From contig RDOC01000002.1 in the NCBI GenBank assembly GCA_011364985.1, positions 96,001-160,000 on the forward strand: a DNA stretch of 64,000 nucleotides, read 5' to 3'. The stretch is from Candidatus Thorarchaeota archaeon. Its GTDB lineage: Archaea > Asgardarchaeota > Thorarchaeia > Thorarchaeales > Thorarchaeaceae. The position numbers and the translations under genes were made by a program. Under the pieces are notes generated by a model. It worked only from the letters and a program-made list of their open reading frames with translations, searched no databases and had not been told where the DNA came from. Positions 25,987 to 37,430 of this stretch are shown piece after piece (the stretch's first letter is position 1; each line of letters opens with the position of its first letter).

Positions 25987-26116
25987 ATACTTTCCTCCAA
26001 GCTGATTTGCATTTACCAAGTTAGGACAAGGCCGTGGGATTGAATACTATGCTTTAACCTTTCCATATCAGAAATGTATTACTCAAGCTAAAATCGGAAC
26101 AGGTGTTCCAAGTAGT

Positions 26117-26407
26117 TTGCTGAGAGATATGACAAGATTCCTGTATCTATATGATTGCAAAAAGGCACGTGAATTCAATGCACGTAGAGTTTCTTTCACA
26201 AAGGAGCTTTATGGATATTTGTATAGTTGGAAAACAAAGAGTGGATTTAAGCAAAAGAAAAAAAGAGGTCTTATAGATCAATGCCTAGGTGCAGAGGTTG
26301 TAACAGATTCAGCAATTCTTGTTCCAGAGTCTTGTAAACACCTATTTGATAATCTATTTGCATCCTATTCCGATATTCTGAATGCGGAAGTGTTTCAAGT
26401 CGTGTAA
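26117..26407 (+). CDS. Small hypothetical protein, possibly Cas2/VapD-like ferredoxin fold, adjacent to oriC
   Basis: FLYLYD beta strand then helix (RRVSFTKELYGY), later DSAILVP strand. Confidence 0.55.
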   Translation: MLRDMTRFLYLYDCKKAREFNARRVSFTKELYGYLYSWKTKSGFKQKKKRGLIDQCLGAEVVTDSAILVPESCKHLFDNLFASYSDILNAEVFQVV

Positions 26408-26418
26408 AGAAAAGCATG

Positions 26419-26654
26419 GAACACGTGTTCGAACAGGGATAGTACCCCTTCGTTTCTGATAGAGAATATCAAAAGTATGACTAATATATTTAGATACCAA
26501 CAAATATAAATACTGGTTTTCTAAATTGCATTTATCTCCATTTTTATTATTAAATATATCAATGCTGTAATTCTCCATTTTCATTAATTCGACCGGAAAC
26601 CAAGGGGTATGATCGTATGGCAAAACACTATTCTGTAAATTAGAACACGTGTTC
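26419..26654. other. Putative replication origin oriC: inverted ORBs around an AT-rich unwinding element, bracketed by GAACACGTGTTC palindromes
   Basis: ORB-L 26444-26464 (minus CTCTATCAGAAACGAAGGGGT), ORB-R 26588-26608 (TTCGACCGGAAACCAAGGGGT), ~80% AT spacer 26465-26587, palindromes 26419-26430 and 26643-26654. Confidence 0.75.
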
Positions 26655-26770
26655 AAAATGTATTATTCGTATTATAATACTAAGACCTTTTCCAAAACCA
26701 CAAGGTTGATACAGACCTCTTAGGGGTGGAAAATCATTGACTACAAAGAGTTAATTGGAGGCAGCATTTC

Positions 26771-28663
26771 TTGACAAAAGCAACGGTACTTCTGGAAGAT
26801 GCACCTGGAAAAGAGATTCTTCTTCTTGCTAACGAAGCAATTGCTCGTGGAGTATTTGAAGCTGGAGTACGACTCGTTGCAGTCTACCCTGGAACTCCAA
26901 GCAGCGAAATAGGTAATAATCTGACCTTTATGGCTCCTCACATACCCAATTTCTATTTCGAATTTAGTGCAAATGAAAAAGTTGCACTTGAGGTAGCAGG
27001 TGCTGCAGCAGTTGCTGGCGTACGTGCTATGATGATTTGCAAGGGTCCAGGTTTGAATGTGGCCGCCGATCCCTTCTTTTCTCTTGCCTATGTGGGTGTG
27101 AGGGGAGGAATGGTCATCTTAGTCGCAGATGACCCTAGCATGTGGAGCTCTCAAAACGAAAATGATAGTCGATATTATGCATTGATGGGCAACATACCTA
27201 TGCTTGAACCAAGCGATCCTTCCGAGGCAAAAGCCATGCTCTTGCAAGCCTATGAACTATCGGAGATGCTTGAGCTCCCAGTGCTACTTAGAACCACAAC
27301 TCGTGTCAACCACACACGAGCACCTGTAATCTTTGGCAAAATCAAGGAGCGACCGGAAACTATACACTTTATCAAAGACCCTTTCCGTTTCGTACCACTC
27401 CCTTCTGTTGCACGCAAACGACATCCCATTCTTCTAGAAACCATAGAGCGAGCAAAGGAAATCTCAGAATCTTCCCCTCTGAACTTCACACAAGGAAGCG
27501 GAGAGCTTGGAATTATCACAAGCGGAGTTTCTTACAACTATGTCCTTGAAGCACTACTCTCAATAGATTGCAAAGCTGAGATACTCAAATTGGGTTTAAC
27601 CCACCCAGTTCCTGATAAAACAATTGCAGATTTTCTTAGACGGCATAGAAGGGTTGTTGTTGTCGAAGAGTTGGAACCTTTCTTAGAAACTCATGTTCGG
27701 CGCATTGCCCAGCTGAATAAGATCGAAGTCGAAATCATGGGGAAAGAACAGGGCTATTTTCCCCGGGTTTTTGAATATAGTCCACGCATAGTGATTGAAG
27801 GATTAACCAAGGCTATTAATTGTAATACACCTATTAACTGGCAGGAAATTGACGACCGCTTGAAGGACTTACCCACACTTCCACCCCGTCCACCTTTGTT
27901 ATGTGCTGGTTGTCCACACAGGGCAAGCTACTATGCTATTCGTACAGCGACAAGAGGAAAAGCTATCTATCCTTCTGATATTGGCTGTTATACCCTAAGC
28001 ATTGCGCCACCATTAGAAACAGCTGACATCCTCTTTGACATGGGTTCTTCTATAACAACAGCATGTGGAATTGCTAAGGTCACTAAACAGGATGTCATCG
28101 CTACTATCGGTGATAGTACATTCTTTGCTTCTGCTCTTCCTGGAATTGCCAGTGCAGTCTACAACGAACATCCAATTAGCGTCGTTGTTCTCGACAATAG
28201 AACAACAGCCATGACAGGGCATCAACCCCACCCTGGTACAGGTGTCACAGGAATGCAAAAGCAAGTTACGCCTCTTGATATTTCTCAAGTATGCAAAGGT
28301 CTTGGTGTCAAATATGTGAAAGTCGTAAATCCTTTCGATTCTATAGCTGACCTAGTTGCTGAGGTTCGTAAGATGGTAAGCTGGGTTAGAAATAACAGCT
28401 TGCCTGCGGTACTTGTTTCAAAAGAACCTTGTGCGCTTTTGACAGCAGCTGAACGTAGACGTACTGGTGATTTTGCGCCAAAATATTACGTAGATGAAAA
28501 GCTATGCAATGCCTGTAAGCGCTGTTTGAATAGATTGTCTTGTCCTGCCATGTACCAAGATCCTAAAACCGAAAAAGCAGTAATAGACGAGACTCTTTGC
28601 AATTTGTGTGGCACATGCATTGCAGTATGCCCTCAAGGTGCGATCAAACGAGAGGTGGAGTAA
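26771..28663 (+). CDS. iorA: Indolepyruvate:ferredoxin oxidoreductase alpha subunit
   Basis: YPGTPSSEI, NEKVALE, CAGCPHR, SDIGCY, IGDSTFF, C-terminal ferredoxin cysteines. Confidence 0.95.
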   Translation: MTKATVLLEDAPGKEILLLANEAIARGVFEAGVRLVAVYPGTPSSEIGNNLTFMAPHIPNFYFEFSANEKVALEVAGAAAVAGVRAMMICKGPGLNVAADPFFSLAYVGVRGGMVILVADDPSMWSSQNENDSRYYALMGNIPMLEPSDPSEAKAMLLQAYELSEMLELPVLLRTTTRVNHTRAPVIFGKIKERPETIHFIKDPFRFVPLPSVARKRHPILLETIERAKEISESSPLNFTQGSGELGIITSGVSYNYVLEALLSIDCKAEILKLGLTHPVPDKTIADFLRRHRRVVVVEELEPFLETHVRRIAQLNKIEVEIMGKEQGYFPRVFEYSPRIVIEGLTKAINCNTPINWQEIDDRLKDLPTLPPRPPLLCAGCPHRASYYAIRTATRGKAIYPSDIGCYTLSIAPPLETADILFDMGSSITTACGIAKVTKQDVIATIGDSTFFASALPGIASAVYNEHPISVVVLDNRTTAMTGHQPHPGTGVTGMQKQVTPLDISQVCKGLGVKYVKVVNPFDSIADLVAEVRKMVSWVRNNSLPAVLVSKEPCALLTAAERRRTGDFAPKYYVDEKLCNACKRCLNRLSCPAMYQDPKTEKAVIDETLCNLCGTCIAVCPQGAIKREVE

Positions 28664-36098: not shown

Positions 36099-36101
36099 TC
36101 C

Positions 36102-36404
36102 TTACAAGCTAAGATACTCATCTGCTATATCAGGAAATTCCTTTGCTACCGCATCTCTTAGCTTACGTTCAACCCACATACTTAGGTTAATAGCTCTTTC
36201 GTTTCTTACAGCCTGCAAACATGACCGTAAATCCGCTGCAATGGAGAAAGATACTATTGGGCTCTTTCTCTCTTTGTTGGGAACTGAAACTACAGCTTCT
36301 GCTGGAGTTTGTTTTCCTAGACTTATTTCAACAGAAGACTTAGTCGCATCTTCATCATCCGATTTTCTCTCTTCTTCTTTGCGATATTTTCCTAAGAGAC
36401 TCAA
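36102..36404 (-). CDS. Ribbon-helix-helix protein with disordered N-terminus (ParG/SegB-like architecture)
   Basis: Charged low-complexity N-terminus, then IVSFSI strand and two helices (DLRSCLQAVRNE; NLSMWVERKLRDAV); coupled to the upstream ATPase with GAGGTG SD. Confidence 0.7.
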   Translation of the reverse strand: MSLLGKYRKEEERKSDDEDATKSSVEISLGKQTPAEAVVSVPNKERKSPIVSFSIAADLRSCLQAVRNERAINLSMWVERKLRDAVAKEFPDIADEYLSL

Positions 36405-36406
36405 TA

Positions 36407-37381
36407 CTAGCGCACCTCTCTAAGTATTGTAGCATAAGCTTCCGCTACCAGTTTGGCAATATCCTTAGTCACCTCTGGATTACCAGATCGCCTTAGATTC
36501 TCCGCAGCCACCTGTTGACATCCTCGCGCCAACATTCGAATATCTCTCGGATTTCCCTTAGCTGCATCATTAATCACCTTAACAGCTTCATCGGTAAAGG
36601 GCGAAATGTCAGTGTTGTTTGGATTGAAGCTATCAATATCACCCTGAGCATAGGCAATTCTTCTTCCGATAAACTCCTTAGCTTTCATATCATCAAGAGC
36701 TGGGACATCAAGTGGTTCTGTTCTATCAGCAATCTGTGGCAAGAAACTAAGCATTGCATTCCAATATACATTGGTACCCGACATTATCAATGTAATAATC
36801 GGCTCATCTAAGACTTCAGGATATTCATCCTTCATTTCCTGAGTTGGTAAATCAGCCAAATATCTGAGCTTGTGAAAAGCTGCCTCTTGATTATCAGCCA
36901 CGTCTTCTACAAATAACGCGGTACGTGATTTTTCTTCGATGTATCTTCTAACACATTCCTTAGCTACTGCCTCAATAATCTGACTTGATTCCCATGACCT
37001 TCTATATTTTACTCTCAATGAATCAGCAATAGCTGCGGACATCTGCTTTTCATAGAGACCAGTCATCCCGACATAGCCAGTCACAAACTTGTTACCTTTC
37101 CGATCAGCCAAAGTAGGAAGGTCTCTCAAAGCTAAAAGCATCAGTGTGCTTTTTCCTGATCCTACAGGTCCTCTAAGGAATATATGTCGTTCATTTGTAA
37201 TTATCAAGTCAACTATACTATCGAGGAAATCCGGATGTTCTACATATAATCTAGAATCCGGCATCTTGAATCCACGAAACGGGGAGAATCGTGCACCAAT
37301 CTTTTCTTCCCATGCTCGCAAAACCTCCTTGCGAGTATTGAAATGACGAATCAATGCACTCTCATGTATCGCGATTGTCAT
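36407..37381 (-). CDS. AAA+ ATPase of the ExeA/TnsC/MuB-like group
   Basis: N-terminal SPF motif, Walker A GPVGSGKST, Walker B LFVED, IMSGT sensor, FTDEAV...GNPRDI lid; start at ATG 37381 with GAGGT SD. Confidence 0.85.
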   Translation of the reverse strand: MTIAIHESALIRHFNTRKEVLRAWEEKIGARFSPFRGFKMPDSRLYVEHPDFLDSIVDLIITNERHIFLRGPVGSGKSTLMLLALRDLPTLADRKGNKFVTGYVGMTGLYEKQMSAAIADSLRVKYRRSWESSQIIEAVAKECVRRYIEEKSRTALFVEDVADNQEAAFHKLRYLADLPTQEMKDEYPEVLDEPIITLIMSGTNVYWNAMLSFLPQIADRTEPLDVPALDDMKAKEFIGRRIAYAQGDIDSFNPNNTDISPFTDEAVKVINDAAKGNPRDIRMLARGCQQVAAENLRRSGNPEVTKDIAKLVAEAYATILREVR

Positions 37382-37403
37382 ATTGGCGACCTCATGTATC
37401 ACA

Positions 37404-37430
37404 TGTACTTATTGTAATACAATAAGTACA
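37404..37430. promoter_or_regulatory. Perfect 13-bp inverted repeat operator upstream of the ATPase-RHH operon
   Basis: TGTACTTATTGTA-A-TACAATAAGTACA, centred on TGTAATACA. Confidence 0.75.

Follow-up and report, generated by a model that had tools for sequence, protein, structure and literature searches.

We analyzed a stretch of 64,000 nucleotides from a Candidatus Thorarchaeota archaeon (contig RDOC01000002.1 of assembly GCA_011364985.1, positions 96,001 to 160,000), which we call the window and number from its first base. It contains a two-gene operon encoding an AAA+ ATPase and a small ribbon-helix-helix (RHH)-like protein, together with a field of short palindromic sites that spans from a predicted replication origin to this operon (Table 1). 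An initial annotation of the window had read the gene pair and its sites as a candidate chromosome segregation system.

The ATPase and its RHH-like partner

Both open reading frames of the operon were confirmed at the positions given in the initial annotation, with 2 nucleotides between them. The ATPase has a classical Walker A motif (GxxGxGKST), matches AAA_22 and has an AAA+ fold in a confident structure model (pLDDT 88). Its best fold matches are Orc2 (Z 18.2), Cdc6 (Z 17.7), MuB (Z 16.8), and TnsC (Z 15.4), at 10-14% identity overall, and Foldseek agrees. The top match to Orc2/Cdc6, with a root-mean-square deviation of 4.0 over 260 residues, points to an AAA+ domain of the initiator type, and we infer that the pair of helices separating strand 2 from strand 3 is an initiator-type insertion. 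A winged-helix domain is absent from the 324 residues, and no match to Cdc6_C was found. By sequence, the nearest bacterial relatives are indeed ExeA-like proteins, an affinity that had been suspected at the outset, but the ATPase scores 22 bits against the ExeA/GspA family (TIGR03015-like) versus a cut-off of 324.5 and has no peptidoglycan-binding domain. In a tree that included Cdc6 and ExeA-like sequences and left out those of TnsC and MuB, the ATPases of this and corresponding Asgard loci split from Cdc6 with support of 100/100 and were placed among the ExeA-like proteins.

In the N-terminal helix of the small protein, an L-x-K-Y-R motif is invariant (L4, K6, Y7, and R8). RHH proteins (Arc, SvtR, MatP, NikR, and CopG) make up nearly all of the top Foldseek matches of this protein, each match being weak, and its structural look-alikes in the Atlas include RHH clusters and a ParG-domain cluster, the latter a likeness to type Ib partition cassettes. 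One distant homologue matches RHH_1 at E 0.0035, below the cut-off, and the adaptor alignment, searched against the sequences of solved structures, gave no matches. The model and the look-alikes, weak but concordant, suggest an RHH adaptor with a flexible N-terminal tail, as is found in type Ib systems. A complex prediction with two copies of the ATPase, adaptor residues 1-36, and ATP scored 0.07, which we count neither way.

A field of phased sites beside a predicted origin

Exact copies of the 9-mer TGTAWTACA are present at all seven positions that had been listed initially (27821, 30070, 31150, 31628, 32284, 33291, and 34043) and at 37413, and the only further copy in the window is a single stray at 6910, again as claimed. 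Five lie in coding sequence (iorA, hypF three times, and the gene at 33378-34625), and the 27 bp at 37404-37430 form a perfect palindrome, 13 bp per arm with a single base at the center. The proposed near-matches at 26075, 29284, 35619, and 37395 have one mismatch each, and the one at 33263 has two.

The 1.70-Mb assembly contains 11 copies of TGTAWTACA, 8 of them in 9.6 kb (window 27821 to 37413), and among 256 odd palindromes this word is the top cluster outlier (Poisson p ~1e-12, scaled for genome length, versus 7e-3 for the runner-up). On the single-contig Thorarchaeota chromosome CP070658, 7 of 8 copies are found at the corresponding locus, in 13 kb around the ATPase gene. The field is present in nearly every relative. 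Mapping of the motif gave one peak per genome, beside an origin marked by origin recognition boxes (ORBs) and co-occurring with the gene pair, which is the distribution that the initial annotation had predicted.

The unit of the field is a GTAWTAC heptad repeated each 9 bp as a dyad or triad, and the perfect 27-bp palindrome is special to this genome. Among 464 site flanks, a near-copy of GTAWTAC occurs at +/-9 bp in 30-32%, with a fainter signal at +/-18 bp and ~1% at other offsets. Five of the 6 best 9-bp triads of the genome are inside the field, where periods of 7, 8, 10, and 11 gave none and a period of 12 gave one weak match. The phased sites are spaced 0.7-1.8 kb apart across a field of 10-12 kb, and two outlying phased heptad sites (44324 and 49546-49572) were seen 7 and 12 kb past the operon.

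Most sites lie deep in coding DNA, and the promoter-only distribution that had been named as counting against a partition role was not seen. Sites exceed the codon-shuffled expectation in iorB (58 versus 15), hypF (152 versus 65), and acd (102 versus 22), counts that come from kin genomes and hence are not independent; the same comparison showed no site excess in atpD and PAN. Conservation at third codon positions is far higher in the sites than in the background; in acd, for instance, the values are 0.99, 1.0, and 0.93, compared with backgrounds of 0.47, 0.69, and 0.48. This contrast between site and background, seen gene by gene, shows selection on the DNA itself. The 9-mer at 31628 fails the conservation test and is possibly a chance occurrence.

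In type Ib partition, phased short repeats serve as both centromere and operator. Phased short repeats are likewise present here, with one set over the operon promoter. Since this triad, which includes the 27-bp palindrome, lies 22 nucleotides downstream of a TATA-like box, the palindrome probably overlaps the transcription start.

At its other end the array starts beside a putative oriC, as had been annotated, where ORBs, an AT-rich element, and a skew switch are found together. These are the features of an archaeal oriC, and the neighboring DNA is predicted to fire as an origin. With cdc6 at a distance of 35 kb, this origin was called from ORBs, synteny, and skew. The cumulative skew peaks at ~26-27 kb, and four-fold sites corrected for gene strand peak at 26403, with a plateau at 23.9-27.7 kb. 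At the corresponding locus in other Asgard archaea, ORBs adjoin cdc6 and usually the gene for the polD small subunit, and in Odin-type and Hermodarchaeota (Hermod) genomes they form an inverted pair around AT-rich DNA.

By the bacterial rule, a cumulative skew maximum is the terminus. In a complete Freyarchaeia genome of 3,576,204 bp (the size given for a Freyarchaeia genome in PMC11291895), a skew switch of the same sign as in Thorarchaeota is found at ~1.66-1.70 Mb, with ORBs, cdc6, and the ATPase gene at 1.637-1.643 Mb. We take this to be an origin whose leading strand is C-rich, with a skew sign opposite to that of bacteria. The skew of CP070658 (1.2 Mb sampled) was too weak to place origin or terminus, and a tyrosine recombinase, sought as a terminus marker, was not found in the genome studied here. 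The start of the Odinarchaeum sequence was set at the skew minimum (PMC9246712). In a 1.418-Mb Odin-type genome, probably that of Odinarchaeum, the ORB pair and cdc6 are at 622-625 kb, and the skew is seemingly reversed. Since the leading strand appears to be C-rich in these Asgard archaea, origin calls made at the skew minimum may be termini.

Several other features of the region were observed. The palindrome GAACACGTGTTC adjoins ORBs in Thorarchaeota, Freyarchaeia, and three families that we label f2, f7, and f21; its copies in the window are at 26419, 26643, and 62431, with a near-match at 26097, and it also occurs on another contig of this genome (C16:32933). A second ORB with GAACACGTGTTC lies on that contig (C16:32791-32944) and in CP070658 (1698049-1698200), with no phased heptads or skew switch, and is a possible secondary origin. 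GC content falls from 45-46% genome-wide to ~40% around the origin (four-fold sites from 0.40 to 0.27), and CP070658 and the complete Freyarchaeia genome show the same fall. The helix-turn-helix (HTH)-like gene of Table 1 stays at Asgard origins beside either the AAA+ pair or ParAB, and the small gene at 26117-26407 likewise stays at origins, beside the AAA+ pair.

Table 1. Features of the operon, the site field, and the predicted origin (window coordinates; fractions are relatives or orthologues retaining the site)
Feature	Position	Strand	Remarks
cdc6/orc1 gene	1321..2529	-	35 kb from ATPase gene; equal distance in two other Thorarchaeota genomes
Perfect origin recognition box with G-string	22370..22388	-	ORB search
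Heptad at origin end of field	26075..26083	.	one-mismatch copy
Small origin-associated gene	26117..26407	+	no Pfam match; Cas2-like by eye only; beside ORBs in five other lineages
Predicted oriC, AT-rich intergenic region at skew switch	26408..26770	.	two GAACACGTGTTC palindromes (26419, 26643)
Degenerate origin recognition box	26589..26607	+	perfect ORB at same place in two relatives
Phased heptad triad inside iorA	27812..27838	.	heptad in 45/54 orthologues
Phased site between convergent iorB and hypF	29275..29301	.	phase and codon-shuffle analyses
Phased triad inside hypF	30070..30096	.	kept 53/53
Weaker heptad inside hypF	30746..30754	.	kept 23/51
Phased triad inside hypF	31141..31167	.	kept 50/53
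Lone 9-mer in hypF, without phased neighbor	31628..31636	.	kept in 1/53 relatives
Intergenic phased dyad upstream of HTH-like gene	32275..32292	.	phase analysis
HTH-like gene, origin-associated	32446..33015	+	189 aa; after ATPase-RHH pair elsewhere; after ParA-ParB in Atabeyarchaeia
Intergenic phased dyad	33291..33308	.	degenerate copy also at 33263
Phased dyad inside 415-aa HEAT-like gene	34034..34051	.	kept 52/58
Phased triad inside acyl-CoA synthetase gene	35601..35627	.	kept 68/70; third positions 0.93-1.0 versus 0.47-0.69 background
RHH-like adaptor gene	36102..36404	-	100 aa, TTG start; N-terminal helix, variable disordered linker, strand-helix-helix domain ~47-97
AAA+ ATPase gene (proposed motor)	36407..37381	-	324 aa; Walker A GPVGSGKST, Walker B ALFVED, arginine finger R220, sensor II GNPR
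Operator/centromere site (putative)	37395..37430	.	9-bp units at 37395, 37404, 37413; triad matched in 63 distinct relative sequences
TATA-like box (putative)	37443..37448	-	22 nucleotides upstream of first heptad unit; same spacing in relatives' consensus

The pair, its sites, and ParAB across Asgard lineages

Conservation of the pair near origins, which the initial annotation had made a test of its reading, extends far beyond this genome. Within Thorarchaeota, close relatives of the ATPase are present as one copy each, at 78-91% identity, in 34 of 36 genomes of the family. Thorarchaeota genomes without the ATPase, one of them a single contig, were considered as natural knock-outs and rejected; the neighboring origin genes tested are also missing from them, so assembly gaps are the most likely explanation. 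In a profile search, seven Asgard families contained the ATPase (59/65, 1/1, 4/4, 4/4, 5/6, 2/2, and 6/8 genomes), and a divergent ATPase with its own RHH protein occupies the same neighborhood in 14 of 19 genomes of the Hermod family, where the ATPase has a C-terminal extension. In eight Asgard families the pair is close to cdc6 or ORBs as markers of an origin, at a distance of 1-11 kb in Odin-type, Freyarchaeia, f7, f21, Hermod, f2, and Heimdall group genomes. Heimdall group is our label for family f26; the name Gerdarchaeales, suggested by the label JABLTI01, found no confirmation in a literature search, and genome 12F4_9 is called Heimdallarchaeales in PMC11914678. The small gene comes next after the ATPase gene at every locus read, usually followed by the HTH-like gene and hypF. 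No ATPase was found with the profile in f5, f9, and f22 (0/26, 0/61, and 0/18), a weak negative, given that the Hermod member also escaped this profile.

Some more divergent archaeal ATPases are also followed by a small gene, and one of these lies 7.5 kb from cdc6 and a pair of ORBs. A further distant homologue (L261:748-2102) is acidic and haloarchaeal-looking, with a 106-aa gene after it and short repeats upstream of both; the module may reach beyond the Asgard archaea. A bin labelled Thorarchaeota (JBHLSA010000001.1) carries both Thorarchaeota-type and Hermod-type modules and is probably mixed.

Five families have a phased field that is unique in the genome, built from GTAWTAC in Thorarchaeota and the Heimdall group, TCAWTGA in Hermod, and GATATC in Freyarchaeia and f7. 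In the Heimdall group, whose RHH protein is ~30% identical to that of Thorarchaeota, GTAWTAC triads are found each 150 bp directly after the operon and almost nowhere else. TCAWTGA heptads of Hermod, again with a 9-bp step, extend over 7-9 kb around the module, a stretch that contains the majority of the genome-wide copies. The GATATC sites occur as pairs, mostly 13 bp apart, and in the complete Freyarchaeia genome 7 of 7 are within 11.4 kb of the module. Neighbor genes vary between lineages while the field stays. The layout persists and the word changes, which matches the prediction for a site-specific adaptor encoded in the module itself.

Atabeyarchaeia (CP147780 and kin) lack the pair, and their locus has the order cdc6, small gene, ORBs, small gene, ParA, ParB, HTH-like gene. 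The f7 locus is arranged with matching orientation as cdc6, small genes, ORBs, ATPase, RHH, HTH-like gene, an order shared by Freyarchaeia. Of 11 pair-bearing genomes, 10 gave no match to ParB_N, among them the one studied here (74% complete), and strong ParA matches are rare in such genomes, with one in 1 of 27 Thorarchaeota genomes. A search for a parS-like palindrome near the Atabeyarchaeia ParAB found none within 3 mismatches. The pattern of genes looks like the replacement of one partition cassette by another, as a single event in either direction. Since ParA-ParB occupies the same slot in a sister lineage, the pair is probably a segregation system.

A candidate segregation system with an AAA+ motor

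The type of motor (ParA, actin, or tubulin) defines the classes of partition systems. Like the type Ib cassettes delta-omega-parS of pSM19035 and ParF-ParG-parH of TP228, the operon has an NTPase gene followed by that of a small RHH protein with a probable flexible N-terminal tail, but the motor here is AAA+ rather than ParA, the genes are chromosomal and vertically kept, and the sites are dispersed over 10 kb of coding DNA. The ATPase does not have the deviant Walker A (KGGxGK) of ParA/MinD that type I partition requires, and as a P-loop AAA+ protein it is unlike the actin- or tubulin-like NTPases of types II and III. Because of its motor, the system is a member of neither type Ib nor SegAB, though it would work in a similar way.

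SegAB-segS of Sulfolobales is likewise archaeal and chromosomal, and the triple repeat bound by its adaptor directly precedes the adaptor's own operon, with partial sites elsewhere (PMC12139799), an arrangement that the putative operator and the dispersed sites here resemble. SegA, however, is ParA-like, and segS of S. acidocaldarius, whose full site occurs once, is 166 kb from oriC2 (PMC12139799), whereas the field here abuts the origin. No match to SegB was reported by Pfam. ParABS, as found at the Atabeyarchaeia locus, shares an origin-proximal operon, clustered sites, and the genomic slot, but the system here has no ParB CTPase clamp, parS palindrome, or deviant Walker A.

Other relatives of the ATPase differ in context. 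MuB of phage Mu and TnsC of Tn7 and CAST elements resemble it in fold and, by analogy, as DNA-coating AAA+ proteins cleared by a partner, and Mu immunity is described as a diffusion ratchet in the title of Han and Mizuuchi 2010, as cited in PMC3894238. Identity to MuB and TnsC is 11-12%, however, the partner here is an RHH protein, and no transposase or TniQ was seen; for transposases, the scan covered ~50 window proteins and the neighbor lists of other lineages. Archaeal Orc1/Cdc6 and ORC include the best structural match and are also origin-linked, but the ATPase lacks their winged helix, forms a separate clade, and coexists with a true cdc6. From the ExeA/GspA-like ATPases it is set apart by its low family score and by the absence of linked secretion genes. 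The initial annotation had stated that neither transposase nor secretion genes are nearby; the first part stands, but two type II/IV secretion ATPase genes (8129-9841 and 58746-60104) are found 21-27 kb away. None were seen in the gene lists of other lineages within ~6.5 kb of the pair. The first of these genes belongs to a cluster at 7102-16419 that also contains unannotated large open reading frames and a 1266-aa HerA-domain protein.

Taken together, the genes, folds, sites, origin link, and ParAB slot make it fairly probable that this is a centromere-adaptor-motor system for chromosome segregation in which the motor is an AAA+ protein. By analogy with omega and ParG, each RHH dimer would occupy one heptad, with adjacent dimers at 9-bp intervals. 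Binding at the triad that covers the start of transcription would repress the operon, and the dispersed sites would draw the new origin region together into a cluster resembling a centromere. In its ATP-bound form the ATPase, like MuB and TnsC, would coat DNA independently of sequence via an insertion loop, and the basic conserved N-terminal helix of the adaptor could reach it on a flexible tether, triggering hydrolysis and release. A depletion zone, as in a diffusion ratchet, or filament turnover might then move sister origins apart, and the HTH-like gene may act as an accessory. The initial reading is thus supported in part: every genomic prediction made from the window held, and the ParAB slot and the phased fields of other lineages are two further lines in favor of a partition role, whereas site binding, contact or stimulation by the tail, and DNA movement are suggested by analogy.

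An alternative is that the module controls initiation, with a winged-helix-less ORC/Cdc6-like ATPase that the RHH protein brings to the flank of the origin to license, block, or time its firing. The top folds (Orc2, Cdc6, and ORC), the constant nearness to an origin, and the C-terminal extension of the Hermod version would fit such a role. We consider it unlikely, given that the ATPases split from Cdc6 in the tree and fall among ExeA-like proteins, that intact cdc6 and ORBs are present, that the sites extend 10 kb to one side rather than lying at the unwinding element, that phased sites are missing from the second ORB locus, on contig C16, and that ParAB fills the slot in Atabeyarchaeia. Bacterial ParA/Soj also regulates initiation, so the two roles may both hold.

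RacA acts on ram sites, and the ram, matS, and Noc fields consist of dispersed sites in coding DNA. The RHH protein could similarly compact or anchor the origin (RacA-like) or mark it for SMC, with the ATPase only loading or stripping it and no pulling motor involved. This would accord with the dispersal of the sites in coding DNA and with MatP among the RHH fold matches, but the field is just 7-12 kb, the auto-operator and tailed-RHH operon match partition cassettes, and the Atabeyarchaeia substitute includes ParA, which makes an organizer of this kind a slightly poorer prospect still. The sign of the skew, whose peak would be a terminus in bacteria, and the GC dip raised the reading of a terminus with a MatP/matS-like system, which we dropped after the ORB and synteny results as very improbable: ORBs lie at the locus, matching loci have inverted ORB pairs on either side of AT-rich DNA, next to cdc6 and the gene for the polD small subunit, ParAB is found at one such locus, and the ORB/cdc6 locus of the complete Freyarchaeia genome has the same skew sign. 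An ordinary transcription-factor regulon beside an unrelated secretion- or transposon-type ATPase, suggested by the putative conserved operator, the ExeA-like relatives, and the two secretion ATPase genes, is just as improbable, since most sites are deep within unrelated genes at one chromosomal place, no transposase was seen among the window proteins scanned, the ATPase is single copy and evolves very slowly, and the field stays while its neighbors vary.

Several observations weigh against a segregation role. The strongest structural matches of the ATPase are to Orc2 and Cdc6, which fits initiation too, and its Walker B has ED in place of DE, so ATP hydrolysis may be slow or atypical. The RHH matches are singly weak, the best at E 1.2. 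In the tree, the ATPases of Thorarchaeota, f2, the Heimdall group, f7, and Freyarchaeia form one clade (100/100), but those of Odin-type and f21 genomes are in another clade with other archaeal ATPases and that of Hermod is a long branch; the module ATPases thus fall into two or three clades, intermixed with other archaeal ATPases, some of which have no RHH neighbor. A scan for short exact palindromes near the module found no field in Odin-type, f21, and f2 genomes despite the pair, and f2 has the ATPase closest to that of Thorarchaeota. The Hermod and Freyarchaeia patterns were first found at module loci and then counted genome-wide. Finally, the slot swap is a single event that one lineage shows, and many genes accumulate in origin regions.

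We found no paper describing this system, most subscription papers being outside the literature searched. The layout of centromere, adaptor, and NTPase is itself known, but the motor would be a new class if the function is true. On balance, and with odds only a little better than even, we suggest a fourth prokaryotic class of segregation motor, an ExeA/MuB/TnsC-related AAA+ protein working with an RHH adaptor on a dispersed, origin-proximal centromere, which would be ancestral or widespread in Asgard archaea, with sites and adaptor changing by lineage and ParAB replacing it in Atabeyarchaeia. The named genes, the defined sites in three sequence flavors, and the natural ParAB control make this testable with purified proteins. 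If true, such a motor would tie the target-immunity ATPases of transposons to chromosome segregation.

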